A stretch of 64,000 bases of DNA, taken from contig JAGXTJ010000034.1 in the NCBI GenBank assembly GCA_018333655.1, forward strand, positions 12,716 to 76,715. Direction: 5' to 3'. The notes beneath the pieces are model-generated. The model did no database searches. It was not told the DNA's origin and was given only the letters and a program-made list of their open reading frames with translations. Source of the DNA: Bacillota bacterium. GTDB lineage: Bacteria; Bacillota; UBA994. Position numbers and translations under genes: made by a program. The stretch's first letter is position 1; each line of letters opens with the position of its first letter. Shown here piece by piece: positions 3,600 to 20,333 of the stretch.

Positions 3600-3623
3600 G
3601 TTAAGGCTGTTATAATGAAATTG

Positions 3624-3649: not shown

Positions 3650-3700
3650 ATTATATAAAGCGGTTCAGATAAAGCGGTTGAGAAAGGGCGTGGCAGTATC

Positions 3701-4327: not shown

Positions 4328-4332
4328 TAGAT

Positions 4333-4911
4333 ATGAACTGCACTTGGGTCAAAAACAATCTCTGCGACATATTGGACGGTCTACTGCCTTCTGACACTGA
4401 GGAACAGTATCAGGAGCACTTGGCTGACTGTGCTGAATGCCGCATGTTGCTGGCAGAAATTGCTCTCGACCAGCAAGCCTTGACTAGTTTGCCCCGTGTG
4501 TCTCCACCCGCCGAACTGATTGCCGGTGTACTAAGCGCTATTCGCCAGCCTGTAAAAAAAGCTCTCTGGCCATTTTTTGCCCCTCGCTTTGCCCCTGTAG
4601 CCGCCGCGCTAGCGATTATGGTCCTAGGTCTCAATTTCTGGATGGCCTACTTTCCCCATCCGTCAGCGACTCGCGAATCGGCCCTGATTGAGACGCAGAT
4701 GGCGCCGCGCCTGTTTGTGGCCGGAGGCGAGGAACCGGATTCAGAAGCCCCTGCAGCGACGGACAAGAGAATGGGCACAGCATCGCTAGATGCCGCCAGC
4801 GAAAGTGCCCTGCCAGAGCGGCCCTCGTTCCTCCTTGTATCATCTGCGCTCGGTGGCAGTATTTTCGTGGTGTGGGGTGCCATCGTCTTAGTCTGGTATA
4901 AGCGTTCGTAG
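4333..4911 (+). CDS. Anti-sigma factor, zinc-binding ZAS type (RsiW-like), single TM
   Basis: Lies 5 nt after the sigma gene. Has the HxxxCxxC motif (HLADCAECRM), a central TM helix (PVAAALAIMVLGLNFWMAYF), and a C-terminal TM helix. Confidence 0.7.
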   Translation: MNCTWVKNNLCDILDGLLPSDTEEQYQEHLADCAECRMLLAEIALDQQALTSLPRVSPPAELIAGVLSAIRQPVKKALWPFFAPRFAPVAAALAIMVLGLNFWMAYFPHPSATRESALIETQMAPRLFVAGGEEPDSEAPAATDKRMGTASLDAASESALPERPSFLLVSSALGGSIFVVWGAIVLVWYKRS

Positions 4912-4933
4912 GAACACATGCTTCATTGTTAAT

Positions 4934-5013
4934 GCGACAGCGGGGACGGTTCTTTTTGTCGGTTTTTGCGACAAAAAGAACCGTCCCCGCTGTCGTGCCG
5001 TCCCCGCTGTCGC
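4934..5013. repeat. REP-like perfect palindrome, copy 1: 27-bp stem, 7-nt loop, plus a 16-nt partial duplication of the right arm
   Basis: gcgacagcggggacggttctttttgtcg-gtttttg-cgacaaaaagaaccgtccccgctgtcg, then tg-ccgtccccgctgtcgc. Starts 23 nt after the anti-sigma stop. Near-identical copy at 16926-16988. Confidence 0.85.
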
Positions 5014-5104
5014 TAATGTTGGGTAAAGTTTGCATACGCCCTTGTCGTGACATGGTAAAAGCATGTAATATTGTAACCAGAGCTAAGTTGTAAGGGGGTA
5101 TTTT

Positions 5105-5875
5105 ATGATCAATTTGCAGACAACGGCCTTCCTAGATATTAAACTAGGTGACGGGCAACTGTCTTTTGGCGAGAGCGTAAAATCAGTGGAACCGGCTTGC
5201 CGTACGTTAGATGAAGCGCGCTATGCCTTTCTGGACGCCGAAGTAGCTGGAAGAACAGATCTATACTACATGTATCGCGACGTGGCGCGGGAGATTGATC
5301 GTGCTCACCTGGCTAAGTATGGTCTACGTTTTGACATCACCGTCATTATGCCTGGGCTTATTGGGCAAGAATTTAACAAGACTGTGGGGCATTATCATCC
5401 CGTCAAGAGTGGGACTACATACACCTATCCAGAAGTGTACGAAGTGCTCTCTGGCGAGGCGACATATCTTTTGCAGCGCCCAGGGCCTCTGGTGGGTAGA
5501 GTGGCAGACGCTTATGTGGTTGTAGCGCGAGCAGGCGACAAAGTCGTTATTCCGCCCGGGTATGGACACATCACCATTAACGCCAAAAGCGTCCCGCTGG
5601 TGATGACGAACTGGGTAGCGGCCGATTTCGCTTCGGTGTATGGCGAGATTAAGGACCTCCGCGGGGGAGCATACTACCTGCTAGAAAAGAACTCTACTTC
5701 TCTGTGGATGCCTAATCCCCGGTATACGGGACTGCCTGCTTTGCGGTTTAGGGCTCAAGAAGACTATGCTCAATTTGGCCTAAAGGCCAGTGAGCCTATG
5801 TACAAGCTGATTTTCGAGTCTCCAGAAAACTTGCGCTTCCTTACACATCCCGAAGAATTTGCTTGGGTAGAGTAG
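5105..5875 (+). CDS. Cupin-type glucose-6-phosphate isomerase (archaeal-type PGI family) candidate
   Basis: Cupin metal-site-like motifs TVGHYHPVKSGTTYTYPEVYEVLSGEATYLLQ and GDKVVIPPGYGHITIN. ATG with RBS AAGGGGG. Family assignment is from memory. Confidence 0.5.
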   Translation: MINLQTTAFLDIKLGDGQLSFGESVKSVEPACRTLDEARYAFLDAEVAGRTDLYYMYRDVAREIDRAHLAKYGLRFDITVIMPGLIGQEFNKTVGHYHPVKSGTTYTYPEVYEVLSGEATYLLQRPGPLVGRVADAYVVVARAGDKVVIPPGYGHITINAKSVPLVMTNWVAADFASVYGEIKDLRGGAYYLLEKNSTSLWMPNPRYTGLPALRFRAQEDYAQFGLKASEPMYKLIFESPENLRFLTHPEEFAWVE

Positions 5876-6045
5876 GAGATTCGCGTTTTCGTAGGCTTAG
5901 GCCACCGCACCCACAACGCCCGCCTGTGCACCTAGCAAGGCGGGCATTATCTTTACCCCCCGTCATACGCAACCTGTAAGGCTTTCTGCAGGTCAGCGGG
6001 GTTTGTAGTATACTAGCTTTAGTGATGATGTAGGATGGTGAGTTT

Positions 6046-8643
6046 ATGCCGCGCTTATTTTTGTTGGACGGATTCTCCCTAGCTTTTCGAGCTTTTTACG
6101 CCATAGACGTAGGGTTATCGACCAAGGATGGTCGTCCTACCAACGCCATATATGGTTTTGCGCTCATGCTCAACAAGCTGATTGAACACTACAAGCCAGA
6201 ATACATGGTGGCAGCCTTTGACCGTGGGCAACCTGTGGCCAGACTAGAGCGATACGCTGCCTACAAGGCGCAGCGTCCCAAGGCGCCTGAGGAATTGAGC
6301 CAGCAAATGGACTCCATCAAAGAGCTGCTCGCAGCATTCGGATGCCAAATATTAGAAGTAGAAGGCTACGAGGCGGATGATGTCATCGGCACTCTGACGG
6401 CAAGGGCTGAACAGGCGGGTATTCAGAGTGTGATTGTTACGAGTGACCGTGACAGCCTGCAGCTCGTTAGTCCACATGTTAAGGTTTTACTGACTAAGAA
6501 GGGTGTAAGCGAGACTGAACTTGTGGGTGAAAGTGAAGTGCGCGCCAAGTACGGCCTTGCTCCCGCCCAATTGATCGAGCTCAAAGCTTTTATGGGCGAC
6601 CCCTCAGACAATATTAAGGGAGTCAAGGGCATTGGTGAAAAGACGGCCCTCGCCCTTGTGCAGGAGTTTCACAGCGTGCAGGGTGTCTATGACAACATTG
6701 CCAATGTTAGCAAGGTAAGAGTGCGAGAGCTCTTGCAGGCAGGGCAGGAAGACGCTATGCTCAGCAAATTTCTCGCGACCATTGTCAGGGATGTCGCGTT
6801 CGATTTCGCCATGGAGGGCCTCTTGCCTAGAGAAACAGATGTCGCACGCTTAGCCATGCTGTACCGGGAGGTAGGGCTGAGTAGCTTGCTCTCACGGCTT
6901 CTAAGTCAGGCGCCTGCCCCCCTGCCTCCCGTTAATGACTCTCTTGTGGGAGAGGTGGTAGTGGCCAAGACGGCGGAGGACCTGACAGCCTATATTGCAC
7001 AGATTGACACGGCACGGCCAGTGGCCCTGTTTAAATCCGCGCCGCATTTCTTTGTGCTGGCTACTGGGAACCGCGCTCTAGCTGTGGAGACTCTAGGGCA
7101 GACTCTGCCGCCTAGCATGGAGAGGCTTCTGGCTGATGCTCGTCTGACGTGGGTAGTGAGCGGCTACAAGGAGCTCTTGGTGGACTTTAATAGGCGTGGC
7201 CTCACCTGGGCGGGTGAAGTTTTTGATATCGAGCTAGCAACCTACCTGCTCGACCCCACCCGTTCAAGCTACAGCGTGGGAGAGCTGGTGACACATTATC
7301 TAGATAAAACGATGGCTGACGATGCACAAGCTTTTGCTCTCCTCGCCCTAGAGCCAGTTTTAAGGGCGCAGCTTATCGAAAAAGAGCTTATCGACTTGTA
7401 CAGTCAAGTCGAGCTGCCTCTTAGTCGGGTGCTGGCTGAAATGGAGATCACCGGCATTGCGGTCGACAGTGGGGTTTTGCGAGAGATGGCCTGGCAAGCG
7501 AACCTGCGCCTTAAAGAAATCGTTACGGACATTTATGTTTTGGCGGGGGAGGAGTTTAACATCAGTTCCCCGAAGCAACTAGGGGTCATCCTCTTTGAAA
7601 AACTGAAGTTGCCCACTTCTAAAAAGACCAAAACCGGTTACTCCACCGATGCCGATGTCTTAGAGTCTTTAGCAGATCAACACCCTTTAGTCGGTAAGAT
7701 ACTTGAGCACCGTACGCTGGCCAAGCTGCATTCAACTTACTTGGAGGGACTACAAAAAGTAATTTCTCCTGTAGGCAGGATTCACACTACTTACAACCAG
7801 ACCGTAACCGCAACTGGGCGTTTGAGCAGCACAGAACCTAATTTGCAGAACATCCCCATCAGGCTGCCCGAGGGTCGGCTTATCCGCAAAGCCTTCAAGC
7901 CAGGGGCTAAGTTTACCCACATTTTAGCGGCTGATTATTCCCAGATTGAGCTACGCATCCTAGCGCATCTATCCAAGGACCCGATCTTGACCGCTGCTTT
8001 TTTACAGGGTGAAGACGTCCACCGCCGCACTGCCGCCGAAGTGTTCGGCGTAAGTCTAGATGAAGTCACCCCTAGCATGCGCGGGAGAGCTAAGGCCGTA
8101 AATTTTGGCATAGTCTATGGTATTAGTGATTATGGCCTGTCAAGGGACATCAAGGTAAGCCGCGCTGAAGCCAAGGCTTACATTGACAATTACTTCAAGC
8201 GCTATCGGGGCGTAAAGGAGTACATAGAGCGTACTATTGCCGAGGCCAGAGCTACAGGTTTTGTAACAACACTGCTGCATCGGCGGCGCTTTCTGCCCGA
8301 TATCAATAGCAAGAACTTCACTTTGCGCTCTTTTGCCGAGCGCACGGCTATGAATACGCCCATTCAGGGGACTGCAGCGGATTTGATCAAGCTTGCCATG
8401 GTAAAAATTGCTAGCGAACTCAAGCTTAAGGGTCTTTGCTCGCGCATGATTTTACAGGTGCACGATGAGCTAGTTTTTGAGACGACCGAAGCAGAGCTAA
8501 GCTTCTTAGCGCCCCTCGTGTGCCAAGCCATGGAGACAGCACTGGCACTAAGCGTTCCCTTGCAAGTGGACTTTAAGATGGGCTTAAACTGGTACGATCT
8601 TCGTCCCCTGACTATGGATAGGGCCGAGGCTCCACATGCCTGA
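6046..8643 (+). CDS. polA: DNA polymerase I
   Basis: 865 aa. 5'-3' exonuclease N-terminus (FLLDGFSLAFRAFYA). Pol A motifs KTGYSTDADVLESLA, RRTAAEVFG, RGRAKAVNFGIVYGISDYGLS, QVHDELVFE. Confidence 0.95.
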   Translation: MPRLFLLDGFSLAFRAFYAIDVGLSTKDGRPTNAIYGFALMLNKLIEHYKPEYMVAAFDRGQPVARLERYAAYKAQRPKAPEELSQQMDSIKELLAAFGCQILEVEGYEADDVIGTLTARAEQAGIQSVIVTSDRDSLQLVSPHVKVLLTKKGVSETELVGESEVRAKYGLAPAQLIELKAFMGDPSDNIKGVKGIGEKTALALVQEFHSVQGVYDNIANVSKVRVRELLQAGQEDAMLSKFLATIVRDVAFDFAMEGLLPRETDVARLAMLYREVGLSSLLSRLLSQAPAPLPPVNDSLVGEVVVAKTAEDLTAYIAQIDTARPVALFKSAPHFFVLATGNRALAVETLGQTLPPSMERLLADARLTWVVSGYKELLVDFNRRGLTWAGEVFDIELATYLLDPTRSSYSVGELVTHYLDKTMADDAQAFALLALEPVLRAQLIEKELIDLYSQVELPLSRVLAEMEITGIAVDSGVLREMAWQANLRLKEIVTDIYVLAGEEFNISSPKQLGVILFEKLKLPTSKKTKTGYSTDADVLESLADQHPLVGKILEHRTLAKLHSTYLEGLQKVISPVGRIHTTYNQTVTATGRLSSTEPNLQNIPIRLPEGRLIRKAFKPGAKFTHILAADYSQIELRILAHLSKDPILTAAFLQGEDVHRRTAAEVFGVSLDEVTPSMRGRAKAVNFGIVYGISDYGLSRDIKVSRAEAKAYIDNYFKRYRGVKEYIERTIAEARATGFVTTLLHRRRFLPDINSKNFTLRSFAERTAMNTPIQGTAADLIKLAMVKIASELKLKGLCSRMILQVHDELVFETTEAELSFLAPLVCQAMETALALSVPLQVDFKMGLNWYDLRPLTMDRAEAPHA

Positions 8644-9460
8644 ACTGCCCGAAGTTGAAACTATACGCCGTAGTTTGTTGCCACATCTTGTGGGCTTGCC
8701 TATCTTGGGGTGCGAGATTTACCTCCCCAAGTTGCTACAAAATCTCAGTGCAGAAGAGTTTAGCCAAAGCATTAGAGGTCGCCATGTAGAAGACATCTTA
8801 AGGCGTGGCAAGTACCTTGTGCTCAGGCTCTCAGGTGGATATACGCTGGTGGTTCATTTGCGCATGACCGGGCAGTTGCGGTTTGTTCACGAAGATGCGC
8901 CGTGCCCGCCACATACGCATATTGTGCTTAAGTTTGCGGCAGGAATGGTGCTGCGTTACACTGACATTCGTCAGTTTGGTTACTGGTTTTTGGCCCCGGA
9001 TAGCGGAATCGAGCAGGTGGCACGCCTAGAGCGGCTCGGTGTAGAGCCGCTAGCTCTAGATTTTACTGTTGGGCATCTCGAGGCGCTATTGCGCGGTCGT
9101 AGGGGTAAGATTAAGGCAGTGCTGCTTGACCAAGCGCGAATAGCGGGAGTAGGTAACATTTATGCCGACGAAGCCCTGTTTGGGGCTGGTCTGCACCCTG
9201 CGCGTGCTGCCGGTAGCCTTGCCCCGGAGGAAATTGCGCGTTTGCATAGGCACTTGCAGGAGGTGCTGAATCAAGGTATTCTTATGCGTGGCACTACTCT
9301 GCGCGACTATGTCGATGGCTCTGGCGAGAGTGGCGGTTTTCAGCATAAACTAAAAGTATATGGGCAGAAGGGCCAGCCTTGCTCAAAATGTCAGACGCCA
9401 ATTGCACGCTTGGTCATCGCAGGTAGGGGCACGCATCTCTGCCCCAACTGTCAGGTATAG
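8636..9460 (+). CDS. mutM: Formamidopyrimidine-DNA glycosylase
   Basis: Starts MPELPEVETIRRSL. C-terminal zinc finger CSKCQTPIARLVIAGRGTHLCPNCQ. 8-nt overlap with polA. Confidence 0.9.
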   Translation: MPELPEVETIRRSLLPHLVGLPILGCEIYLPKLLQNLSAEEFSQSIRGRHVEDILRRGKYLVLRLSGGYTLVVHLRMTGQLRFVHEDAPCPPHTHIVLKFAAGMVLRYTDIRQFGYWFLAPDSGIEQVARLERLGVEPLALDFTVGHLEALLRGRRGKIKAVLLDQARIAGVGNIYADEALFGAGLHPARAAGSLAPEEIARLHRHLQEVLNQGILMRGTTLRDYVDGSGESGGFQHKLKVYGQKGQPCSKCQTPIARLVIAGRGTHLCPNCQV

Positions 9461-9484
9461 GGCAACGAGAAGGGGAGAGAGGGC

Positions 9485-10087
9485 ATGGCAGTTCTTATTG
9501 GCATAACCGGGGGTATCGGTACAGGCAAGTCGACGGTGGCGGGTATGTTAGCCGCACTTAAAGTCCCCATCGTAGACGCCGACAAAGTCGCGGCTGAATT
9601 AATGCAGCCCGGTGAGGACGTATATAACGAAGTAGTGACTCACTTTGGGCGTACCATACTGCGACCAAATGGCATGATTGACAGGGCGAAGCTAGGAGCC
9701 CTTGTTTTTGCCGACGGCGAGAAGCGGCGCTTACTCGAGAGCCTGTCTCATGGCAGGATATGGTCTGAAATGATGGAAATATTTCGCTCGCTAGAAGTCG
9801 TGGGGCATTGCGCAGTAGCTTTTGAAGTGCCCCTCTTATTTGAGGCAAAATTAAACCAACTTGTAGATGAAGTATGGGTGGTTGTGTGCACGCATGAGAC
9901 CCAGCTCCAGCGTGTTATGGCGCGCGACCTCTCGGAAGAAGAAGCCCTGGTGCGCATGGCGACGCAGATGCCGCTAGCTGAGAAAATAGAACTTGCCCAC
10001 AGGGTGATATACACCGAGGGTAGCCTTGGGGACACTAAGATGCAAGTGGAGCGCTACTACATGAGCATTTGCGGAGGCGAAAACTAA
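9485..10087 (+). CDS. coaE: Dephospho-CoA kinase
   Basis: P-loop IGITGGIGTGKST and typical CoaE layout. Follows polA-mutM as in Bacillus. Confidence 0.85.
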   Translation: MAVLIGITGGIGTGKSTVAGMLAALKVPIVDADKVAAELMQPGEDVYNEVVTHFGRTILRPNGMIDRAKLGALVFADGEKRRLLESLSHGRIWSEMMEIFRSLEVVGHCAVAFEVPLLFEAKLNQLVDEVWVVVCTHETQLQRVMARDLSEEEALVRMATQMPLAEKIELAHRVIYTEGSLGDTKMQVERYYMSICGGEN

Positions 10088-10650
10088 GCGTGCGTCGGTA
10101 TGCCTTGTTGCTGACATTGGTCGCAGTCATGGTAGTTATGGCAGTACTCATCGCCCCGTCCCTGTGGCGCATTATCTACCCTTGGCCTTATCGAGACATA
10201 GTTCTGCGTTATGCCGAGCTACATGGCTTAGATCCCTTTCTAGTCGCGGCGGTCATACGGGTAGAGAGTAGCTTTAGAAGCAAGGCTGTATCGCCCAAAG
10301 GTGCGCGAGGGTTGATGCAAATTATTCCTACCACGGGGCAATGGATTGCCAGCCAAGTAGAGGTGCCAGATTACAGTGAAGATAGGCTCGACAACCCCGA
10401 GACTAACATTATGATGGGCACATGGTACTTAAGAAATCTTAAGGAACAGTTTGACGGCAACCTGGTCGTGGCGCTGGCCGCCTACAATGGAGGCAGAGGT
10501 AATGTCAAAAATTGGCTCAAAGAGGGTGTTTGGAGCGGCCAAGTGGCAGACATTGCGAGCATTCCCTTCTCAGAGACGCGACACTATGTTTGGCGCGTGC
10601 TGCGCATCCAACAAGTTTATCGCGAACTGTATGGCCGTAAAACACAATAA
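10069..10650 (+). CDS. Lytic transglycosylase (SLT domain), membrane anchored
   Basis: SLT catalytic motif AVIRVESSFRSKAVSPKGARGLMQIIPTTG, AYNGG. N-terminal TM helix. Start codon uncertain (TTG 10069 overlaps the coaE end). Confidence 0.75.
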   Translation: MRRRKLSVRRYALLLTLVAVMVVMAVLIAPSLWRIIYPWPYRDIVLRYAELHGLDPFLVAAVIRVESSFRSKAVSPKGARGLMQIIPTTGQWIASQVEVPDYSEDRLDNPETNIMMGTWYLRNLKEQFDGNLVVALAAYNGGRGNVKNWLKEGVWSGQVADIASIPFSETRHYVWRVLRIQQVYRELYGRKTQ

Positions 10651-10702
10651 TCTCCCTTGACACACGGACAGTTTGCTTGTAAGATAAGTATCGGCGGTTG
10701 AA

Positions 10703-10789
10703 GCCGAAGTGGTGGAACTGGCAGACGCGCTGCGTTCAGGGCGCAGTGAGTGAAAGCTCGTGTGGGTTCGAATCCCACCTTCGGCACCA
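10703..10789 (+). tRNA. tRNA-Leu (anticodon CAG), type II with long variable arm, CCA encoded
   Basis: Acceptor GCCGAAG/CTTCGGC. Anticodon stem-loop CTGCG-TTCAGGG-CGCAG. T-arm GGTTCGAATCC. Ends CACCA. Confidence 0.85.
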
Positions 10790-10817
10790 CTTACCTATTT
10801 TCAACGAGACATCAGCT

Positions 10818-10900
10818 GTCCGAGTGGCGGAACTGGCAGACGCGTACGTTTGAGGGGCGTATGGGAGACCATGTGGGTTCAAGTCCCACCTCGGACACCA
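10818..10900 (+). tRNA. tRNA-Leu (anticodon GAG), type II, CCA encoded
   Basis: Acceptor GTCCGAG/CTCGGAC. Anticodon loop TTGAGGG. T-arm GGTTCAAGTCC. Ends CACCA. Confidence 0.8.
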
Positions 10901-10907
10901 CAAAAAA

Positions 10908-10937
10908 CTAACACCAGGTAATACTGGTGTTTTTTTA
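10908..10937 (+). terminator. Rho-independent terminator after the tRNA pair
   Basis: acaccaggtaatactggtgt followed by TTTTTTT. Confidence 0.75.
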
Positions 10938-10968
10938 CTATACAAAGGAAGAAAGAGGCGTTGTGTTA

Positions 10969-11802
10969 ATGAGGCGCATTTTGTTTGCGGCTGTGATTGT
11001 GCTAGCTATACTTTCCCTCCTAGGTTGTCAGTCCCACTCGACTATACCAGCCCTCTTCACGGCACATTTTATTGATGTGGGCCAAGGCGACAGCATTCTC
11101 TTGCAGGCTGGTGCGCAGAACATACTTATCGATGCCGGTGACCGGGCGAGCGGTGCGCGGGTCGTTGCCTACTTGCGAGCCCAGGGCGTCCGCAAGATAG
11201 ACCTCTTAATCGCGACTCATCCACATGCAGATCATATTGGGGGACTAGAAGAAGTGTTTCAGCAAATGCCAGTGGCGCGCATCATCGATTCTGGGCAAGT
11301 ACATACCACGCAAACATTTTTAAACTACCTGAGGACAATTGACGACAAGAACATACCTTTCGAGACACCTGCTGGGCAGATTATCGAGTTGGCAGCCAAT
11401 GTAGAGCTTAGGGTTATTGGTCCGCTCCGAGCTTATGATAACTTGAACGATGGTTCAGTGGTCGTCATGGTTAGGGCAGGGACGGTCAGTCTTTTGCTCA
11501 CCGGCGATATGGAGAGTGACGCGGAGAGGGATCTGTTGCAGGCGGGGGGCTTGTCGGCTACAGTGCTCAAAGTCGGCCACCACGGCAGTAATACTTCGAG
11601 CACCACAGACTTTCTGCAGGCGGTGCGCCCAAGGGTAGCCATCATCTCGGTTGGAGCGGACAATTCGTTCGGCCACCCCTCCCCAGCCGTGCTTGCCCGC
11701 CTCAGGGAGGTAGGCGCTGACATCTACCGCACCGATAGACATGGCACTATAGTCCTCAGGACGGACGGGGAGACTTTTTCTATACGGACAGAGCGAAAAT
11801 AA
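10969..11802 (+). CDS. MBL-fold metallo-hydrolase lipoprotein (ComEC C-terminal-domain-like)
   Basis: Lipobox LSLLGCQS. Metallo-beta-lactamase motifs HFIDVGQGDSILL, LIATHPHADHIGG, KVGHHGS. Confidence 0.7.
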   Translation: MRRILFAAVIVLAILSLLGCQSHSTIPALFTAHFIDVGQGDSILLQAGAQNILIDAGDRASGARVVAYLRAQGVRKIDLLIATHPHADHIGGLEEVFQQMPVARIIDSGQVHTTQTFLNYLRTIDDKNIPFETPAGQIIELAANVELRVIGPLRAYDNLNDGSVVVMVRAGTVSLLLTGDMESDAERDLLQAGGLSATVLKVGHHGSNTSSTTDFLQAVRPRVAIISVGADNSFGHPSPAVLARLREVGADIYRTDRHGTIVLRTDGETFSIRTERK

Positions 11803-11824
11803 CCTAGGGGGTTTTGGCGTGAAG

Positions 11825-12043
11825 ATGATTGCCGTTGTGGATCGCATCGAGTCTCTGCAGGCAGTTCTTCTGCTCGGAGAAGAAGAGGTAAGGGTGTGCC
11901 TACCGTTGACTTGTTTACCGCCAATCAGCGAGGGGTCGGTACTCGACATTGCGATTACGCTCAATAAGTCCCAAGAAGAACAGCGACGATGCGAGGCTAC
12001 CATGCTTATGCAAAAGTTAAAGCGACCGCGCACAGAGACATAA
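11825..12043 (+). CDS. Small DUF3006-like protein, typical partner of MBL/ComEC-like genes
   Basis: IAVVDRIESLQAVLLLGEEEVRVCLPLTCLPPISEGSVLDI resembles DUF3006. Immediately downstream of the MBL gene. Confidence 0.45.
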   Translation: MIAVVDRIESLQAVLLLGEEEVRVCLPLTCLPPISEGSVLDIAITLNKSQEEQRRCEATMLMQKLKRPRTET

Positions 12044-12192
12044 GTCGGGGTGCTTCGCGGTTTGTCGCGCTAAAATGCCTCATTTGTCTGAATTTAGCGA
12101 AATGTTTTTTGTCACTAAAGTAACTCCATGGCAGGAACTCACAATATGGGTGTGGTATTCACCCTAAAAGTTGAGACGTGGAGGCGAGTTAG

Positions 12193-13005
12193 ATGCAAGA
12201 ACAGAGTGTTTACTACTGCGTGGTGCACGGAGATCGAAGGGATATGGCCTTTTCTTCGGACCGTGCCAAGCAAGAAATGGTTAATGCCCTGGCGGAGTGC
12301 AAAGCTTTCTCTAGTATCCATGTGTATGCCTTTGCTTTTTTGGAGTCACAAGTCCACCTCGCACTACAGGGCACAAGTAAGGGCTGTGTTGAGGTGGTCT
12401 CTCGGCTCTGTCCGACACGGGCAGGCGAGGGCCTAGGCGCGCGCTTTGAACGACATGTCTGTCATCCCGATCGGCGGCTTCTCACCCTTGCCGCCTACTT
12501 GCACCAGCTACCCGTGCGCTATGGGCACTGTCAGCACCCTAACTTAGCGCGTTATACCAGTCATTCCGCTTACTTGGGCGGAGAGAAATACCCGTTTGTA
12601 GATAGCGCAGCAATGCTCGCCTTACTTAGCCCCGACCGTAAAGAAGCCATTCGTCTTTATCTTGGCCTTTTGAAGAGAGAGGTAAGTCCCGCGGAGCTAG
12701 AGCAGGTATTTTGCCGCGAAGAGAATTCGCGTTCACATAGTGGCGTGCGGCATGTGCCAGATGTATTAGAGGCAATTGCTACGCATATTGAAGAGGTTAC
12801 GGGAGTGGCCCTAAGCATCATGCGCGGCAAGGGGCGCTCTCCACGCGTGGTCGAGGCGAGGCGTCGCCTGATCGCCAGTGCTGTTCTTGAGCATTCTGTC
12901 CCAGTCTCCGAAGTCGCGAAGTACTTGCATGTTCATCACTCCTATGTTTCGCGGCTGACCTTCTCACATTGTGACAGTGTGGGTAACGAAAGGCCTATCG
13001 CCTAA
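12193..13005 (+). CDS. IS200/IS605-family Y1 (HuH) transposase-like protein of the REP-associated (RayT-like) type, with C-terminal DnaA-domain-IV-like HTH
   Basis: SVYYCVVHGDRRDMAF, VYAFAFLESQVHLALQG (HuH motif), AAYLHQLPVRYGHCQHPNLARYTSHSAYLG (the RayT YI-x-NPV-like region). C-terminal LIASAVLEHSVPVSEVAKYLHVHHSYVSRL resembles DnaA C-terminal HTH. No TnpB/second ORF and no IS ends. The matching palindromes at 4934 and 16926 flank the region. Confidence 0.6.
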   Translation: MQEQSVYYCVVHGDRRDMAFSSDRAKQEMVNALAECKAFSSIHVYAFAFLESQVHLALQGTSKGCVEVVSRLCPTRAGEGLGARFERHVCHPDRRLLTLAAYLHQLPVRYGHCQHPNLARYTSHSAYLGGEKYPFVDSAAMLALLSPDRKEAIRLYLGLLKREVSPAELEQVFCREENSRSHSGVRHVPDVLEAIATHIEEVTGVALSIMRGKGRSPRVVEARRRLIASAVLEHSVPVSEVAKYLHVHHSYVSRLTFSHCDSVGNERPIA

Positions 13006-13071
13006 TTGCCTCTAGTGTGGGCATCTCTGCATAGTCTCCCAGTCTTTAGAGAAAAATACCCCTGAGGTCAG

Positions 13072-14631
13072 GTGAGGTCTGTGCGGAAGAAAGTAAGAGC
13101 ATTGCGAAAACCACTACCGGTCAAGGAATTTGCCAAGACTCCCACCGCGGAGGGCTGCTTCAGCGGCCATCTGGCTCATGATTGCGCCGGGTTAAAGGCC
13201 ATTTTGGCCAGCTCTGCCGATCTTAGAGAGCGCTTGTTAACCACCAGTAAAGGCACTCAGGGCGCGGTGCTCTACTTTGCCAATGTGGTCAATCTGCCCT
13301 TTGTCAGCGAATCCATCGTCGGGCCTCTGCAGAGACATGGGGGACGCTCTGACATGGAGTACATAGCGCAGCAGATTGTGCATGTGCCGGAATACAGTCT
13401 TGAGAGCGATCTGCAAAAAGTAGCCTGCGCTTTGTCCGATGGTGCTGTGGCCGTGCTCTTGGCGGGCGAAACATGTGTGCTACTAGTGCCGCTCTTTGCC
13501 ATGGAACACAGGCCGATTGAGCGAGCCATTCAAGAGGATATATTGATAGGCCCACACGAAAGCTTCTGCGAGAGTTTAGGCAGCAACATAGCCTTGCTGC
13601 GGCGCAGGATAGCGACTCCAGATTTTAAAGTAAAGGAACTGACTATTGGTCGTCGCTCGCGCACCACGGTGGCCATTTTGTACTTAGAACGCATTGCAGC
13701 AGCCAAGTTAGTCGACGAAATGGACGAGCGGCTACGGAGCATCGACATCGACTTTGCCTTAGGTATCACCTACTTAGCCGATTTTCTAGAGGACGACCCG
13801 AGGTCTGTCTTCCCTACTCTAAGGTCGACAGAAATCCCCGTCAGGGTAATGGCCGCACTAATGGAAGGGCGCGTCGCGGTCATGGCGGAGGGCGATAGTA
13901 GCGCGCTCATTGCGCCGACCTTTGCTCCAGAGTTCTTGCAGGCCTCCGAAGACTACTTTGACCGACCGATGTCGGGCACGTTTTTTCGCCTTATTAGGCT
14001 GGTGGGTCTGCTCCTCTCGGTTTTTCTCCCTGGCATGTGGATAGCGCTGGTGGCCTTTCACCATGGCATAATTCCGACTCCTCTATTTGACTCTATTGTC
14101 GCGGGCAGAGAGGGTGTCCCCCTGCCCACGGTACTTGAAATATTCGTGCTTATACTGGCCTTTGACCTGATCGTGGAATCGAGCACCAGGATGCCCACCC
14201 GCATTGGCCAGGCGCTTGGTATTGTCGGAGGCATAATTTTAGGGCAGGCGGCGGTGCAGGCGGGCTTAGTGAGCCCGGCCATGGTGATTGTCGCCGCCCT
14301 CACCGGGTTATCAATCTTCACGCAACCCTCTGTCACTTTTCTTTCACCACTACGTTTTCTCAAGTACCCCGTGCTTATCGCTGGTAGCATTTTAGGGGTA
14401 TTCGGTGTAGTCTGGGCACTAATCTATATTTTGATTGCTGTAACATCCTTGCGCTCCTTTGGTTATCCCTACATGTACCCCATAGCGCCCTTTAATTTGC
14501 GGGGGGCGATAGATGTTTTTGTCAGAGTGCCAAAGTTCATGCATCAAAAGCGGCCGTCAATACTGGCCTCGCCGGAGGAGATGCGCATGGACACCCCACT
14601 GCCCCGCCCCACACGCAGGAAAAAGCCATGA
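13072..14631 (+). CDS. Spore germination protein, GerA/KA family (A subunit)
   Basis: 519 aa. Soluble N-domain plus C-terminal 5-6 TM helices. Characteristic GerAA-like segments (VAILYLERIAAAKLVDEMDERL, FPTLRSTE, GRVAVMAEGDSSALIAPT). Confidence 0.85.
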   Translation: MRSVRKKVRALRKPLPVKEFAKTPTAEGCFSGHLAHDCAGLKAILASSADLRERLLTTSKGTQGAVLYFANVVNLPFVSESIVGPLQRHGGRSDMEYIAQQIVHVPEYSLESDLQKVACALSDGAVAVLLAGETCVLLVPLFAMEHRPIERAIQEDILIGPHESFCESLGSNIALLRRRIATPDFKVKELTIGRRSRTTVAILYLERIAAAKLVDEMDERLRSIDIDFALGITYLADFLEDDPRSVFPTLRSTEIPVRVMAALMEGRVAVMAEGDSSALIAPTFAPEFLQASEDYFDRPMSGTFFRLIRLVGLLLSVFLPGMWIALVAFHHGIIPTPLFDSIVAGREGVPLPTVLEIFVLILAFDLIVESSTRMPTRIGQALGIVGGIILGQAAVQAGLVSPAMVIVAALTGLSIFTQPSVTFLSPLRFLKYPVLIAGSILGVFGVVWALIYILIAVTSLRSFGYPYMYPIAPFNLRGAIDVFVRVPKFMHQKRPSILASPEEMRMDTPLPRPTRRKKP

Positions 14632-15710
14632 CCAAAATCAGCATAGGTCTGTCGCAGGGCTTCTTAATGATTGTGACGGTGACTGTGGGCACGGTTTTCT
14701 TCCCGGTGGCGGGTGTAGTTGTGCCGTTAGCCGGGGCTTCGGGCTGGATAGCGGTACTTCTCGCCTTTGCCGTGGCTTTGCCATGGTGTGCCATGGCCGC
14801 TTATCTCGCCCGCCACGGGCCGCCCGGCAACTGGGGAGGAGCCGTGTTGTCGTGGCTTGGGCCCGTGGTGGGGCGCATATTCTTGCTTTACTTTGCTTTT
14901 GTCTGGCTGTGGCTCGGTGGGTTACTGCTCGGGCAAACTGGTTTTGTTTTTCACGATATGGCTATGCCGCGCACACCGCCCGATGTCTTGAATTTTGCGT
15001 TACTGCTGCTGGTCGTGTTGGTGGACTACAAGGGGCTCGAGGTATTTGTGCGGACCATCGAAGCCTTGACGTGGCTAAGCATCATAGGTCTTTTGGGCTT
15101 TGTCGTCGGAGTGGTGCCGCTGACAGAGTTAGATAACTTGCTGCCGGTAATCGATGCCGCCCCCGCGCTCATTGCCCATGCCGCTCTGTTTTGCCTACCC
15201 TGGGCTATGGAAGGGGTGTTATTTGCTCTTTTCATGGGTGTGTTTCTGCGGCAGCGGTCAGGCCTGGGGGGGCTGTTTAGCCTTGCGGTCGGGGGGGCGG
15301 GAGTCTTACTGGCACTGATGACCGTGTTTACGCTCGGAGTACTGGGGAGGGGAGTCACAACTAGTTATCTCTACCCCACAGCCATACTGGCGCAAACCTC
15401 GCGTCCGGGCTTTTTCCTCGAGGGCATGGAGTTGTTTCTTTATCCGCTGTGGATTGTGGCGTCATTTGTGAAAATAGGGGCGGCGTTTACCATGGTTTCC
15501 CTGAGCCTAGCAGGAGTATGGTCGGGTTTTAGGCAGCCCTATCGTAGTTTGTTGCTTGGGGTGGTCTTCTTTATTATTGCCACGACACCCTCGCATATCT
15601 TTGCGCTTGTAGCCTCGATTTCTCGCGTCGACAATTCCTTCATAATGTCTTTTTATCTTATTCTGCCGTTACTCGCCTTGTGGGTGCGACTTAGGCGGCA
15701 CGAGGAGTGA
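14628..15710 (+). CDS. Spore germination protein, GerAB family (APC-type permease, B subunit)
   Basis: 360 aa, about 10 TM helices. Start MTKISIGLSQGFLMIV typical of GerAB. 4-nt overlap with the A subunit. Confidence 0.8.
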   Translation: MTKISIGLSQGFLMIVTVTVGTVFFPVAGVVVPLAGASGWIAVLLAFAVALPWCAMAAYLARHGPPGNWGGAVLSWLGPVVGRIFLLYFAFVWLWLGGLLLGQTGFVFHDMAMPRTPPDVLNFALLLLVVLVDYKGLEVFVRTIEALTWLSIIGLLGFVVGVVPLTELDNLLPVIDAAPALIAHAALFCLPWAMEGVLFALFMGVFLRQRSGLGGLFSLAVGGAGVLLALMTVFTLGVLGRGVTTSYLYPTAILAQTSRPGFFLEGMELFLYPLWIVASFVKIGAAFTMVSLSLAGVWSGFRQPYRSLLLGVVFFIIATTPSHIFALVASISRVDNSFIMSFYLILPLLALWVRLRRHEE

Positions 15711-15714
15711 GACA

Positions 15715-16917
15715 GTGAAAAGAGCCAAAATGCTACTTGTCGTCATTTTAAGCTTGCTCCTCGTTGGGTGCTGGGACCAGCAAGAGATTACCGCCCTCGC
15801 CTCCATTTCAGGATTAGGCTTTGATGTGGGCAGCTACGCCCACACCATGCGTATTTCGGTGTTAACATCACCGCCCCAACCATTCGGGGGTGGAGGTGGG
15901 GGGGGTGGTAGCAGACTGCGTGTTATCACCGTAGAAGCGGCATCCTTTACTGAGGGTATAACATTGCTGCAAGGACATTTGCGCCGCGAGCCGTTTTTTC
16001 TGCATCTCGGCTTTGTTGTCTTTGGCGAGGAGCTAGCTAAGAGCGGGCTCGATGGGGTGCTATCCGCCCTGCAGGGGCGTACGACGATTCGTGGCTCTGT
16101 GCCCGTCTTTGTGGCTCAGCAGACGGCAGAGGAGACGCTTAAGGCTCGCTCGGGGGGTGGGCATGCTCCCGGCGAAGATGTTGCTGATCTACGTGATAAT
16201 TTTGCTACGGCCCCACTAGGTCGCCACGTTAGTATTCACGAGGTGCGTAACACTTTGCTCGCACTGGGTAGTGAGCTAACCTTGCCCATCTTGGAGCTTG
16301 CTCCACTACGACTACAGGCTGGCGACGAAACTCCTGCGACTGGGGTCGGGGTCGCTGGCGAACAACTGCACGAGGTGTTTGTGCGGCGGATGGCTGTGTT
16401 TAGCCGCGACAGATGGGTGGCGGACTTAGATCAGTACTTAGTGCAGACCTTTGTCATGCTTAAGGGGGATACTAGAGTCGGCAGCGCTACCATTGTCGAC
16501 CCCGCCGATCCCACCAGTCATATGGGGCTTACTATTGTGAACTTCTCCGCGCGGTTTGATATCAAGAGTGGCGAAGAAACCGTCGAAATTACCATTTCGC
16601 CTCGCGTGCGGGCGGTAGTGCGCGAGGTTACAGGTACCTACAGCCTGCGAGATAGGGGGTTTGCGCCCATCGCCATGAACTTAGAGCAGGACATAGATCG
16701 CCAGGTACAGCAGGTGGTGGCCTTCTTGCAGGAAAACCAAGCCGATGCCTTAGGGTTTGGTCATATGCTGCGCCGTAGTAATCCCGCGGCGTGGTCTAAG
16801 CTAGAAGATCGTTGGAGCGAGGTTTTTCCGGCGGTGACTGTGCGCGTGAACACCGAGGTGAAAATAGAGGGCACGGCCATGGTGGCCAGATTCTTCGAAG
16901 TTAAGCGTGAGGACTAA
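15715..16917 (+). CDS. Spore germination lipoprotein, GerAC family (C subunit)
   Basis: Lipobox LLLVGCWD. Ger(x)C-like body. Contains a poly-Gly run (GGGGGGGGS). Confidence 0.8.
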   Translation: MKRAKMLLVVILSLLLVGCWDQQEITALASISGLGFDVGSYAHTMRISVLTSPPQPFGGGGGGGGSRLRVITVEAASFTEGITLLQGHLRREPFFLHLGFVVFGEELAKSGLDGVLSALQGRTTIRGSVPVFVAQQTAEETLKARSGGGHAPGEDVADLRDNFATAPLGRHVSIHEVRNTLLALGSELTLPILELAPLRLQAGDETPATGVGVAGEQLHEVFVRRMAVFSRDRWVADLDQYLVQTFVMLKGDTRVGSATIVDPADPTSHMGLTIVNFSARFDIKSGEETVEITISPRVRAVVREVTGTYSLRDRGFAPIAMNLEQDIDRQVQQVVAFLQENQADALGFGHMLRRSNPAAWSKLEDRWSEVFPAVTVRVNTEVKIEGTAMVARFFEVKRED

Positions 16918-16925
16918 TGCACTTT

Positions 16926-16988
16926 GCGACAGCGGGGACGGTTCTTTTTGTCGGTATTTGCGACAAAAAGAACCGTCCCCGCTGTCGC
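16926..16988. repeat. REP-like perfect palindrome, copy 2: 28-bp stem, 7-nt loop
   Basis: gcgacagcggggacggttctttttgtcg-gtatttg-cgacaaaaagaaccgtccccgctgtcgc. Stem identical to copy 1 (4934-4995); the loop differs by 1 nt. Starts 9 nt after the gerAC stop. Confidence 0.85.
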
Positions 16989-17038
16989 TGATCTCTTGGA
17001 CATAAACAAAGACCCCGCCGGATATACTCCCATGGGGG

Positions 17039-17560
17039 GTGTATATTTTGCGGGGTAAGTTGTTTTTCGCATTAGTCGCAGTAGTTGCGGCATTGCTTGG
17101 TGTTTGGACAGTCTATCAGAGCTATATTGATTCGTCTCCACTAGGGACAGATGGTAGAGAAGTAAGACTCTACTTTTCTAACCGCGAGGGCACGCAAGTC
17201 GTGGGCGAAAACAGGGCGCTGGCAGGGACAATTACGGCGGAGAAGATTGTTCGCGAGCTTATCAAAGGACCAGAGGCCCCTCACCTCTACCCGACTTTGC
17301 CGCCTAGCACGAGGCTCCTGAGTTTGCTTGTCCAAGGGCGAATTGCCTATGTAGACTTCTCGCGCGAGGTCCAAGACAATTTTCTGGGCGGCACGGCGGC
17401 TGAGTTGATGCTCGTGTACTCGGTGATTGCCTCCCTCACTGAAATGCCAGATATCGCGTCAGTGCAATTTCTCTTAGAGGGTCAAGTTAAAGAGAGTATT
17501 TGGGGGCATATCGACACTAGTGTCCCTCTGACACCAGACGCGCAGTTTATAGCCAGATAA
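17039..17560 (+). CDS. GerMN-domain (sporulation/germination) protein, membrane anchored
   Basis: N-terminal TM, then REVRLYFSN...LIKGPEAPHLYPTLPPSTRLLSL...AYVDFSREV...SVQFLLEGQ, typical of GerM-like domains. Confidence 0.55.
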   Translation: MYILRGKLFFALVAVVAALLGVWTVYQSYIDSSPLGTDGREVRLYFSNREGTQVVGENRALAGTITAEKIVRELIKGPEAPHLYPTLPPSTRLLSLLVQGRIAYVDFSREVQDNFLGGTAAELMLVYSVIASLTEMPDIASVQFLLEGQVKESIWGHIDTSVPLTPDAQFIAR

Positions 17561-18809
17561 ACCAGAGGAACGCTGCACCGATGGTGACTGCCACTATCGT
17601 CGTAGGCACGCCAATCTTCATAAATTCACCGAAAGAAACGCTATGCCCTTGCCGCCTCAACATGCCGACAGCGACCACGTTAGCTGAGGCACCGATAGGG
17701 GTGATATTGCCCCCTAGGCTAGTACTGAGGACAAAGGCAAACATAAAGAGCAAGGGATTAACGCCCATGCGTTCTGCTAGTAGCTGTGCTACCGGCAGCA
17801 TGGCAATGGTGTAGGGGATGTTGTCTACCAAGGCGGATACCGCCACGGAAACGACCACAATCAGCAGGAAGGCAGTAAGCAGGGAGTCACCCGCGAGAAC
17901 AGTCATGACATTGGCGACTTCCGTTATCACCCCCGTTACAGTGAGGCTACTAATGAGGACAAAGAGTCCGGCCAGTAAAAAGAAAGTCTGCCAGTCGAGC
18001 TTCGTCAATTCCATAGCAAAGAGGTCGTTGCTGTAGTTCCACAGTAGCGCCACTAGGCCGACCGCAACAGCAATGAGGCCCGGCAAGAAATCTGGTCTGC
18101 CCGGTACAAAAGAGGAACCGGCAAGCAGCATCACCAGTAAGCCTATAAAGAGCGTCGGTGTCCAAGAATAAACGCTAGGTAATTCCATCTTGCTGACAAA
18201 GCCTTTTGCATTGCGGAGAAACCTAAAAACGATGAACATGGCCGCGATAAAGCCGATTTGTACGGCGAAAAAGATGCCCGGCCTATTGTTTACCCAAAAG
18301 AAATCCATAAAAGTAAGGTTAGCGGCCGTAGCCAAGAGTATGCTTGGTGAGTCGCCGATCATGGTGGCTACCCCCTGCATGTTGGCGGCTATCGCTACCG
18401 AAATAAGTACGGGCACAGGTGAGGCTTTAACTTTGCGCGCTGTCTCTAAGGCTAGGGGCGCGACAATAAATACCGTCGCCACGTTCTCTACAACTGCGGA
18501 GAGCAGGCCAGAGAAGACGACAATAGATAGAAGAGAGAGCGCCGCGCTGCCGGAGGCGTTGACCATGCGCGTAGCCATGTAGGCTGGTGCTCCCGAGGCG
18601 ACAAACAGCTCGGCTAAAATCATGGTGCCGAAAAACAGTCCTAGAACATTCCAATTTAAGGCTTGCCAGGCTTGGTTTATGGTGATAATGCCCATCACCA
18701 CGAGGAGAAGTGACGCGCCCCAGACAAAGTAGAGTGAACGTTCTCGTTTTAGGATGAGCAAGAGATAGGTGAGGCCGAATACCAGGACAGCAATGGCTTG
18801 GTCGTTCAA
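17547..18809 (-). CDS. ArsB/NhaD-superfamily permease (CitMHS/DASS-like ion transporter)
   Basis: About 420 aa polytopic membrane protein. TTG start with GGAGGTG RBS 6 nt upstream; the longer 18956 start is unlikely. Confidence 0.55.
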   Translation of the reverse strand: MNDQAIAVLVFGLTYLLLILKRERSLYFVWGASLLLVVMGIITINQAWQALNWNVLGLFFGTMILAELFVASGAPAYMATRMVNASGSAALSLLSIVVFSGLLSAVVENVATVFIVAPLALETARKVKASPVPVLISVAIAANMQGVATMIGDSPSILLATAANLTFMDFFWVNNRPGIFFAVQIGFIAAMFIVFRFLRNAKGFVSKMELPSVYSWTPTLFIGLLVMLLAGSSFVPGRPDFLPGLIAVAVGLVALLWNYSNDLFAMELTKLDWQTFFLLAGLFVLISSLTVTGVITEVANVMTVLAGDSLLTAFLLIVVVSVAVSALVDNIPYTIAMLPVAQLLAERMGVNPLLFMFAFVLSTSLGGNITPIGASANVVAVGMLRRQGHSVSFGEFMKIGVPTTIVAVTIGAAFLWFIWL

Positions 18810-19024
18810 TTTAAACACCTCCGAAAATCTACACACATTACAAAGACCTCTGCCCGTTAGGACAGAGGTCTCGCTGCAAAGCATCGCTTTGTGCAGGGCC
18901 GGCGCGTCAGCGCGAGATGGCGACCATGCATTATTAGCTACTCCCCTCATGTGCACTAACAGTGTATCAGATTAGGTTGGCACTCACAACCCACTTTTAG
19001 TAGTATCCCCGCGCTCTCCTCGCA

Positions 19025-19053
19025 TTGACAAGCCCACATGGCTCAAGGATAAT
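19025..19053 (+). promoter_or_regulatory. SigA-type promoter candidate for murA (TTGACA, 17-nt spacer, GATAAT)
   Basis: TTGACA at 19025-19030, 17-nt spacer, GATAAT at 19048-19053, about 30 nt upstream of the murA ATG. Confidence 0.45.
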
Positions 19054-19085
19054 TGGGGGGTACAGATGTAAGTGAGGGTGAGAAA

Positions 19086-20333
19086 ATGAGCGCCATATTG
19101 GTCAAGGGTGGTAATAAACTTAAAGGCGAAGTGTCGGTCAATGGGTCTAAGTATGTGGCTCTCGCAGCTATACCAGCAGCGCTTTTAGCGAACAGCCAGG
19201 TTGTTCTGGAGAATATTCCGGACCTAAGTGACGTGCGCGTTTTCTGTGAGATTCTAGAGGGGATGGGGGCAAGGGCCTCCTTTGGGGGCGGAGTTGTCAC
19301 TATCGACCCTCGGGGACTACGCCACGCGGTTCCTAACCCGGCCTTAGTGAGGCAGTTGCGTGCTTCTTACTACCTGCTAGGTGCCCTGCTCGGCCGCTTT
19401 GGTGAGGCGGAAGTGGCCTTGCCTGGCGGTGATGATATCGGTCCCCGACCCATCGACCAGCATGTCAAGGGTCTGTGTGCACTAGGCGCCGAGACAAAGA
19501 TCCTGCACGGACATATTAAGGCGACATCGGTGGGGCTTAAAGGTGCCTCCGTCTATCTTGATGTGGCTAGCGTGGGGGCGACGATAAATATCATGCTCAG
19601 CGCGGTTCTTGCCGAAGGACAAACCATCATCGTCAACGCCTACCCGGCTCCGTGGATTATTGATCTCGCCAACATGCTTAATGCGATGGGGGCGAGAGTC
19701 TATGGGGCAGGCACAGAAACAATTCGCATTCAGGGTGTGAAAGCGCTCCATGGCTGCCAGCATGCCATTATTCCTGATCAGAGCGAGGCGGCCACCTTGA
19801 TGATTGCCGCTACCCTCACGGGGGGAGATGTAACGCTCCAAAATGTCATCCCCCTCCACTTGGGGTCAGTTACTGCTAAGCTACGCGAGACTGGGGCGGT
19901 AGTCTTACCTACGGAAGACAGTATTCGTGTCATCGGCCCACAGCGCCCTTCGGCCGTGAATGTCAAGACGCTGCCGTACCCAGGTTTCTTTACGGATTTT
20001 CAGGCACCCATGAGTACTCTTCTAACAGTGGCAGAAGGAACGAGCCTAGTCACAGAGACCATTTGGGAAGACCGCTTCAGGCATCTGGAAGAGTTGATCA
20101 ACATGGGGGCTAAAGTTCGTTTTGAAGGGCGTAGCGCTTACATAGAGGGCGTGCCGAAACTTACAGGCGCTCTCGTGCGTGGAACCGACTTACGGGCGGC
20201 GGCCTCGCTGGTCATGGCGGGCATGGTGGCCGAGGGGGAGACGCTGGTAGAAGGCATTATGCACATGGACAGAGGTTATGAAAAACTAGACCAAAAGCTG
20301 CGCGCGCTTGGGGCCGACATCACCCGGCAATAA
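19086..20333 (+). CDS. murA: UDP-N-acetylglucosamine 1-carboxyvinyltransferase
   Basis: MSAILVKGGNKLKGEVSVNGSKY...; EPSP/MurA fold signatures throughout. ATG 9 nt after RBS GAGGGTGAG. Confidence 0.9.
   Translation: MSAILVKGGNKLKGEVSVNGSKYVALAAIPAALLANSQVVLENIPDLSDVRVFCEILEGMGARASFGGGVVTIDPRGLRHAVPNPALVRQLRASYYLLGALLGRFGEAEVALPGGDDIGPRPIDQHVKGLCALGAETKILHGHIKATSVGLKGASVYLDVASVGATINIMLSAVLAEGQTIIVNAYPAPWIIDLANMLNAMGARVYGAGTETIRIQGVKALHGCQHAIIPDQSEAATLMIAATLTGGDVTLQNVIPLHLGSVTAKLRETGAVVLPTEDSIRVIGPQRPSAVNVKTLPYPGFFTDFQAPMSTLLTVAEGTSLVTETIWEDRFRHLEELINMGAKVRFEGRSAYIEGVPKLTGALVRGTDLRAAASLVMAGMVAEGETLVEGIMHMDRGYEKLDQKLRALGADITRQ

Follow-up and report, generated by a model that had tools for sequence, protein, structure and literature searches.

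Contig JAGXTJ010000034.1 of a Bacillota bacterium was analysed over a stretch of 64,000 nucleotides (the window), which contains an open reading frame (ORF) of 270 amino acids, referred to here as gene X, whose position at 12193-13005 of the forward strand and whose previously quoted peptides were confirmed. Gene X is probably a domesticated, catalytically disabled descendant of the TIRYT transposases (subclass 2.1 of the TnpA_REP-like proteins), and its product is probably a DNA-binding protein. This reading is adopted because the folds have been kept, the catalytic set and the terminal repeats have been lost, the gene occupies one fixed site, and it is under purifying selection. An earlier note on the same DNA had proposed that gene X encodes an active enzyme related to RayT, the nuclease that acts on repetitive extragenic palindromic (REP) sequences, and that its cognate substrates are two palindromes of 27-28 bp in the window; the evidence that bears on that proposal is considered below together with the evidence for domestication.

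The domains of the protein must be assigned at the level of the family, the profile or the structure, because single-protein matches to the Pfam models fail. For the gene X protein itself Y1_Tnp gives no match at E<=1 and Bac_DnaA_C gives E=0.068 (score 13.7 against a threshold of 31.5), so that the domain check suggested earlier is negative at this level, and the NCBIfam model REP_Tyr_transpos (NF047646) yields 20.5 bits against a cutoff of 80. Across the family the same check is positive: Bac_DnaA_C matches 17 of the 19 members (best 6.4e-7) and Y1_Tnp matches 13 of the 19, while scores against the NCBIfam RayT model fall in a gradient from intact relatives (66-84 bits) through the other members of the X family (42-44 bits) to gene X. 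Searches of the PDB sequences with the single sequence and with the family profile (A1) returned nothing meaningful, and the domains are resolved only by a broader profile (A2) and by structure models. An AlphaFold model built from the family alignment, with a predicted local distance difference test (pLDDT) score of 77, has as its best PDB match in Foldseek 4er8_A, the E. coli RayT with its REP hairpin (E=1.9e-4, probability 1.00, TMt 0.52), with the ISDra2, IS608 and IS200 transposase structures ranking after it; profile A2 matches 4er8 at 1.4e-6 and also matches DnaA. In a separate model of residues 186-270 (pLDDT 83.5), the ten best PDB matches are all DnaA DNA-binding domains, with TM 0.70-0.76. 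The RayT-like Y1 core and the tail resembling DnaA domain IV, both recognized in the earlier note, are borne out by these matches, and as judged from the models the reading of the protein as a Y1 fold joined to a DnaA-IV-like helix-turn-helix (HTH) is correct. The recognition region of the HTH, V247-HHSYVSRLT-256, is invariant in seven aligned orthologs, and among the 19 family members its conservation is at least 90%.

The catalytic residues have not been kept in the same way. The active site of RayT comprises Y115, H59-M60-H61, N119, H123 and E161 (PMC3479197), and the alignment of the profile to 4ER8 maps H59 to Q53, H61 to H55, Y115 to Y102, N119 to L106 and H123 to Y110 in gene X. The HuH motif that had been read in the peptide ESQVHLALQG is actually Q53-V54-H55, from which the first His is gone. 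The first HuH position is Gln in 18 of 19 X-family members, compared with His in all 147 of the other superfamily representatives; the position of the Asn ligand (N119) is Leu in 20 of 20, compared with Asn in 145 of 147 elsewhere; and the nucleophile column (Y115) contains ten Tyr, six His and four Phe, compared with Tyr in 145 of 147 elsewhere. The full H,H,Y,N set occurs in none of the 20 X-family members and in 145 of the 147 next-best superfamily representatives. In one member of the X family, P0017, H-V-H is still present; this protein and P0020 may represent intermediate stages in the loss of the set. The gene X protein itself keeps H55 and Y102, so that a Tyr is indeed found where the alignment to RayT places the catalytic one, but in a column that varies among the orthologs. 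The earlier note had held that absence of the His pair or of the catalytic Tyr would refute its proposal, and what the alignment yields is Q-V-H in place of the pair, Leu in place of Asn and a Tyr that is not conserved.

The architecture of gene X is not in itself novel. With E<=1e-3 as the limit, an exhaustive profile search gives 18,445 representative clusters, and many of the matches extend over the full length of proteins of ~270-320 aa; the mainstream members of this superfamily pass Pfam Y1_Tnp and score near threshold with Bac_DnaA_C or HTH_23. Only three representatives score better than 1e-90 and the next is at 1e-41, and on these scores gene X appears as a divergent twig of a large superfamily. 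The architecture has been published as subclass 2.1 of the TnpA_REP-like proteins (Quentin et al. 2018, PMC6006769), a subclass which that paper equates with the TIRYTs, or TIRtrons, of Di Nocera et al. 2013 (PMC3733652), and the earlier description of the DnaA-HTH fusion as unusual does not hold, given these reports and the number of clusters. The flanking inverted repeats of TIRtrons have GGGGWSAS in common, and they can give rise to families of repeats that are dispersed and often dimeric (PMC3733652). The HUH motif and the catalytic Tyr have been reported to be conserved across all TIRYTs, and sequences lacking HuH/Y were deliberately discarded from the published survey as pseudogenes (PMC6006769).

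Gene X resembles the TIRYTs in that a RayT-like Y1 domain is followed by a C-terminal HTH of the Bac_DnaA_C/HTH_23/HTH_28 type within ~270-320 aa, and the palindromes of the window fit the class of the terminal inverted repeats (TIRs), since they contain GGGGACGG, comparable to the GGGGWSAS consensus, and are dimeric and dispersed. It differs from the TIRYTs in that it lacks the first HUH His, the Asn ligand and a conserved Tyr, in that it is confined to one syntenic locus in a narrow clade, and in that it has no flanking TIRs, which the intact relatives at loci L022, L037, L103, L132, L146 and L149 possess. With RayT (TnpA_REP; PDB 4ER8; PMC3479197), the best structural match to its N-terminal domain, gene X shares the alpha-D motif x-Y-x-H-x-(N/L)-P-V and the W/Y-x-S-S/T-H segment, and it is likewise chromosomal, vertically inherited and, judging by synteny, single-copy; RayT, however, is a protein of 165 aa without an HTH tail, is flanked by its own REPs and has H59/H61/Y115/N119/H123 where gene X, without flanking repeats, has Q/H/Y(variable)/L/Y. 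The TnpA proteins of the IS200/IS605 insertion sequences (ISs) share the Y1/HuH fold, but gene X sits at a single locus without subterminal hairpin ends or TnpB, carries an additional HTH and a degenerate catalytic set, and has no match to Pfam Y1_Tnp; gene X is a maintained host gene and not an IS.

The fold of residues ~186-260, the basic segment GKGRS..VV.ARR and the H-S-x-V signature of the recognition helix are shared with domain IV of DnaA, from which gene X differs in its lack of an AAA+ domain and in its sub-threshold Pfam score. An explanation in which gene X acts on replication by binding DnaA boxes, where it might compete with DnaA or modulate it, would draw on this fold, on the location of the gene in the polA neighbourhood and on the H-[ST]-x-V signature, which has been kept (HHSYV in gene X, DHTTV in DnaA). 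This explanation is very improbable, because DnaA boxes show no enrichment either in the window or close to gene X (13 observed, 10.7 expected), most of the base-contacting positions of the tail differ from those of DnaA, and thousands of TIRYTs with flanking repeats unlike DnaA boxes have the same tail (PMC6006769).

Among 5.8 billion proteins the X family has 19 homolog clusters; their source organisms are all uncultured Bacillota, with the labels Dethiobacter sp., Firmicutes or Peptococcaceae. The ortholog loci examined (43-78% identity) all have the gene at a single syntenic site, in the order polA-fpg-mntP-coaE-SLT, then either a pair of genes for a metallo-beta-lactamase (MBL)-fold protein and a DUF3006 protein or a pst operon, and then gene X. 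The ORF is intact in 20 of 20 family members, and for four ortholog pairs the ratio of nonsynonymous to synonymous substitution rates (dN/dS) is 0.14-0.21 at dS 0.8-1.5, which indicates purifying selection. Gene X is the only Y1-type ORF in the window and no TnpB was found there, in agreement with its earlier description as solitary and without IS ends. Searches for bracketing inverted repeats or relics of terminal repeats around gene X and six orthologs gave relic scores inside the shuffled null, and generic inverted-repeat scans around gene X and its orthologs gave short, inconsistent pairs only. The absence of the catalytic residues and terminal repeats and the sub-threshold scores with curated models are what would commend the view that gene X is a functionless, decaying TIRtron relic, a pseudogene in the making, but the intact ORFs, the low dN/dS, the ten-residue invariant segment of the HTH, the synteny conserved across the range of identities and the conserved promoter-like element upstream make this view hardly credible.

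The palindromes with which gene X had been paired are real, and lie far beyond chance expectation: they have perfect stems of 27 and 28 bp and a 7-nt loop, they are 98% identical to each other, and the 20-mer palindrome arm occurs four times in the window against 0.00 expected. The two copies, 7.2 kb upstream and 3.9 kb downstream of gene X, each join two units of a widespread hairpin, GACAnnGGGGACGGTTCTTTTTGTC, head to head. As a palindrome, the arm is absent from 185,579 species-representative genomes, a set which does not include the source genome, and only five isolated single-arm matches were found there, in unrelated taxa. The presence of the palindromes varies among close relatives. In L139, whose protein is identical to that of gene X, there is no palindrome after gerAC; at that spot L139 and L010, a relative at 78% identity, have a short hairpin, CTACGAC-AGAGG-GTCGTAG, whose outer CGAC/GTCG bases are in common with the 63-nt palindrome (window 16917-17039, L139:6078-6145, L010:10390-10457), so the junction is not that of a simple clean-ended insertion. 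At the site of the first copy (window 4860-5013 compared with L136:200-330, L137 and L141), the three strains have, of the palindrome, no more than two fragments of the right arm (CCGTCCCCGCTGTCG, twice), and the DNA upstream is unrelated, a comparison from which palindrome 1 is taken to mark a strain-level rearrangement junction. Besides the two copies in the window there are contig breaks at the repeats: several short-read contigs (L141-L144) start or end exactly at palindromes, as would be expected of a multicopy repeat.

It is improbable that gene X is an active RayT-like nuclease acting on these palindromes, and that a Gram-positive spore former would thereby possess a REP/RayT system. 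RayT is its best structural match, Y102 and H55 are kept, the gene is single-copy and vertically inherited as RAYTs are, strains show the palindromes to be mobile or polymorphic, and the hairpin unit flanks related Y1+HTH genes elsewhere; all of this would fit such an enzyme. The changes of H59 to Gln and of N119 to Leu are, however, fixed in the X family, and the nucleophile is Phe or His in 10 of 20 orthologs that are still under purifying selection. Gene X has no flanking repeats, and no palindrome flanks its homologs in the 10 ortholog loci (~130 kb), from all of which the 11-mer core of the unit is absent. The palindrome content differs among strains with an identical protein, and the unit is distributed far more widely than the 19-cluster family. 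An invariant recognition helix in the HTH points to a target that is itself conserved, which excludes the lineage-specific palindromes. The closest intact relative has a different TIR. The cognate pairing is accordingly not supported; what stands of the proposed REP/RayT-like system is that the palindromes belong to a repeat family of Y1+HTH transposases, of which gene X is not the enzyme. The likeliest agent of the spread of the palindromes is an intact TIRYT, located elsewhere in the genome or now lost, and not gene X.

The hairpin unit is ~29 nt long and has the form NNGACAnn-GGGGACGGTTC-TTTTTGTCNN. The 19-mer core of the palindrome arm was found in at least 120 stretches of metagenome DNA, whose source organisms have GC contents of 27-71%, and the ~29-nt unit NNGACAnnGGGGACGGTTCTTTTTGTCNN occurs, with its core invariant, in termite-gut, digester, rumen and other metagenomes (L016-L135). 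The outer stem (the u2-d1 pair) co-varies: it is paired in 83% of cases, where shuffling gives a mean of 41%, and four types of Watson-Crick pair occur. An inverted pair of units lies within 90 nt in 25 of 120 loci, and tandem or head-to-head dimers of the unit are frequent. Rfam and the literature gave no family and no paper for the sequence of the unit, and a search with the repeat core gave chance primer matches only. In four of the 120 loci GGGGACGGTTC units bracket catalytically intact Y1+HTH genes, with dimers on both sides in L022, and this is the geometry of a TIRtron. Units make up ~4% of the 790 kb searched, and all five Y1 genes have a unit within ~60 nt, an adjacency which is very unlikely to arise by chance (by our estimate, of the order of 1e-5). 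The HTH tails of the unit-bracketed TIRYTs are of a short type, unlike the DnaA-like tail of gene X.

The closest intact relatives of gene X are also TIRtrons, with repeats other than this unit, namely GGTACCTGGTTTGCTTTATTGTC in P0021 and another pair in P0022, and gene X scores 157 bits with the P0021 group compared with 75-105 bits for the GGGGACGGTTC-carrying TIRYTs. At the P0021 locus (L146:2804-2971, 3886-3918) two copies of GGTACCTGGTTTGCTTTATTGTC lie upstream and one inverted copy overlaps the stop codon; the pattern of these TIRs loosely parallels the GGGGAC-GGTTC-TTTTTGTC unit.

In the proposed course of events, gene X descends from an ancestral TIRYT. It has lost the first HuH His (Q53), the Asn ligand (L106) and the conservation of the nucleophile, together with its terminal repeats, and within a narrow group of Dethiobacter/Peptococcaceae-like Bacillota it is fixed at one syntenic site. 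The resulting protein would no longer cut DNA but would act through its HTH as a sequence-specific DNA binder, either a regulator or an architectural factor, with the old hairpin-binding surface of the Y1 domain possibly assisting in the binding, while the head-to-head dimer palindromes would have been spread by an intact TIRYT. The conserved region upstream of the gene itself is a plausible candidate target. A TTTTnGTCAC block lies 75-85 nt upstream of gene X in the window and at four of six ortholog loci, and GCAGGA lies 55-65 nt upstream at all seven loci, where a downstream GTA(A/T)T-like element is also conserved. The GCAGGA element may resemble a sigma-H-type -35 box (AGGA). A scan for sigma-70 promoters and terminators around gene X gave nothing exceeding expectation. 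TTTTnGTCAC equals the inner end of the TIR unit, a likeness that is not above the shuffled null, and the blocks are possibly, from their sequence, a relic of the ancestral upstream terminal repeat.

These upstream elements also enter into another explanation, in which gene X is catalytically dead but still recognizes TIR-type hairpin DNA or its derivatives, and either represses or modulates the movement of the repeats or serves as a transcription factor; in the latter version its operator descends from its own former terminal repeat, an exaptation in which the binding site was retained. We regard this explanation as unlikely. It would account for the persistence of the TTTTnGTCAC block in orthologs at 45% identity and its match to the TIR inner end, for the similarity of the L001 flank, AGGGAAAAGTTTTTAGTCAC, to the unit, AGGGGACGGTTCTTTTTGTCAC, for the selection that keeps both the Y1 fold and the HTH, and for the presence of palindromes of a related class in the genome of gene X; on the other side, the likeness of the flank to the unit is within the shuffled null, the block is absent from two of the ortholog loci, the 10 ortholog loci contain no units, and the TIRYT group to which gene X is closer has TIRs of another sequence. 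The specific claim that gene X is a transposase turned transcription factor, recognizing the remnant of its upstream repeat and/or TIR-type hairpins, is doubtful. If it were true, gene X would regulate host genes or restrain the mobility of repeats in a clade of alkaliphilic spore formers.

The preferred reading, a domesticated TIRYT descendant without catalytic function that probably binds DNA, has several points weighing against it. The loss of cleavage is deduced from residue changes, Y102 is still present in this protein, and Gln can ligate the metal in some HUH enzymes (HUQ variants). The TTTTnGTCAC block has no counterpart in L005 and L006, two of the six ortholog loci, and is only suggestive as a candidate target. 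The check for palindromes covered about 10-17 kb around each ortholog, and the intact TIRYT in the source genome is assumed.

Table 1. Positions of gene X, its domains and motifs, its neighbours and the repeats (coordinates are those of the window unless a locus is named).
Feature	Position	Strand	Basis or remark
Gene X, TIRYT-like protein, catalytically degenerate, Y1 fold + DnaA-IV-like HTH	12193..13005	+	ORF, 19 homolog clusters, domains, dN/dS
Y1/HuH-fold domain, N-terminal, aa 1 to ~135	12193..12597	+	Foldseek, profile A2
Degenerate HuH motif Q53-V54-H55 (RayT H59-M60-H61)	12349..12357	+	Residue mapping
Helix alpha-D equivalent Y102-L-H-Q-L106-P-V-R-Y110-G (RayT Y115...N119...H123)	12496..12525	+	Residue mapping
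DnaA-domain-IV-like HTH, C-terminal, aa ~186-260	12748..12972	+	Domain model, PDB matches, Pfam on family
Conserved non-coding blocks AAATGTTTTTTGTCAC ... GCAGGA	12100..12136	+	Promoter-/operator-like; conserved in orthologs to 45% protein identity
Palindrome copy 1, head-to-head TIR-type unit dimer	4934..4995; extra partial right arm 4998-5013	.	Fold -53.9 kcal/mol
Palindrome copy 2, 9 nt past the gerAC stop	16926..16988	.	Fold -57.1 kcal/mol; presence varies among strains
tRNA-Leu(CAG) and tRNA-Leu(GAG)	10703-10789 and 10818-10900		1.3 kb upstream of gene X
MBL-fold protein (10927-11802) and DUF3006 protein (11819-12043)	10927..12043	+	Syntenic pair upstream of gene X
gerA-type germinant receptor operon (GerA, spore permease, GerAC)	13072..16917	+	Downstream of gene X
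Intact TIRYT genes bracketed by GGGGACGGTTC units	L022:4150-5230, L037:11800-12700, L103:1300-2260, L132:150-1100
Truncated Y1+HTH gene	L126:1-260		Unit ~50 nt upstream

Gene X ends 66 nt before the start of the gerA operon, and its placement just upstream of that operon and downstream of the tRNA-Leu pair had been given correctly in the earlier note. In its relatives a HydABC-type [FeFe]-hydrogenase operon is convergent with gene X, with gerA beyond it; this electron-bifurcating operon places four to six genes between gene X and gerA (L010:2201-6394, L001:8809-14687). In the lineage of the window it is absent from between gene X and gerA (13005-13072), having been lost or moved, and this is why gene X abuts gerA. 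A functional tie between gene X and the hydrogenase operon was rejected, since the two are convergent and since, in the window lineage, gene X persists although the operon is missing from that site, and a conserved role as a regulator of gerA is likewise unsupported, since the adjacency of gene X to gerA is lineage-specific.

The pair of genes for the MBL-fold and DUF3006 proteins is also found upstream of gene X in L001, L008, L010 and L136-L145. The MBL protein has a signal- or lipoprotein-like segment at its N-terminus and matches the PADLOC MBL-domain models LmuA, RTasMBL and Avs1a, which probably reflects generic domain similarity; gene X itself has no match among the PADLOC defence models. 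Rfam, applied to positions 1-20000, gave the two tRNAs and sub-threshold matches to miRNA precursors at long hairpins, and no described RNA family. Elsewhere in the window, three segments of ~62 nt, 66-74% identical and spaced at ~1.5 kb (repeat family D1, 48439-51488), resemble a motif shared by three adjacent paralogous genes (antiporter/NuoLMN-like), and G-rich runs GGGGGTGGAGGTGGGGGGGGT occur at 15886-15906 and 63013-63033, the first of which codes for a poly-Gly linker in GerAC.

The impact of these results is moderate, since the architecture and the repeat class were already known and the function of gene X is inferred; gene X is of modest interest as a tamed transposase and does not form part of a new repeat-and-enzyme system. 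The co-varying GGGGACGGTTC unit of Bacillota-rich metagenomes is linked to intact TIRYTs, and this extends the existing picture of the TIRtrons. RAYTs are textbook examples of domesticated bacterial transposases. Both RAYTs and TIRYTs have been described as keeping their catalytic residues, whereas the clade of gene X lacks them and is nevertheless maintained by selection. This clade would thus show a second step of domestication, in which the chemistry is lost and the DNA-binding scaffold is kept, and gene X offers a tractable case for asking why a dead Y1 transposase is retained.

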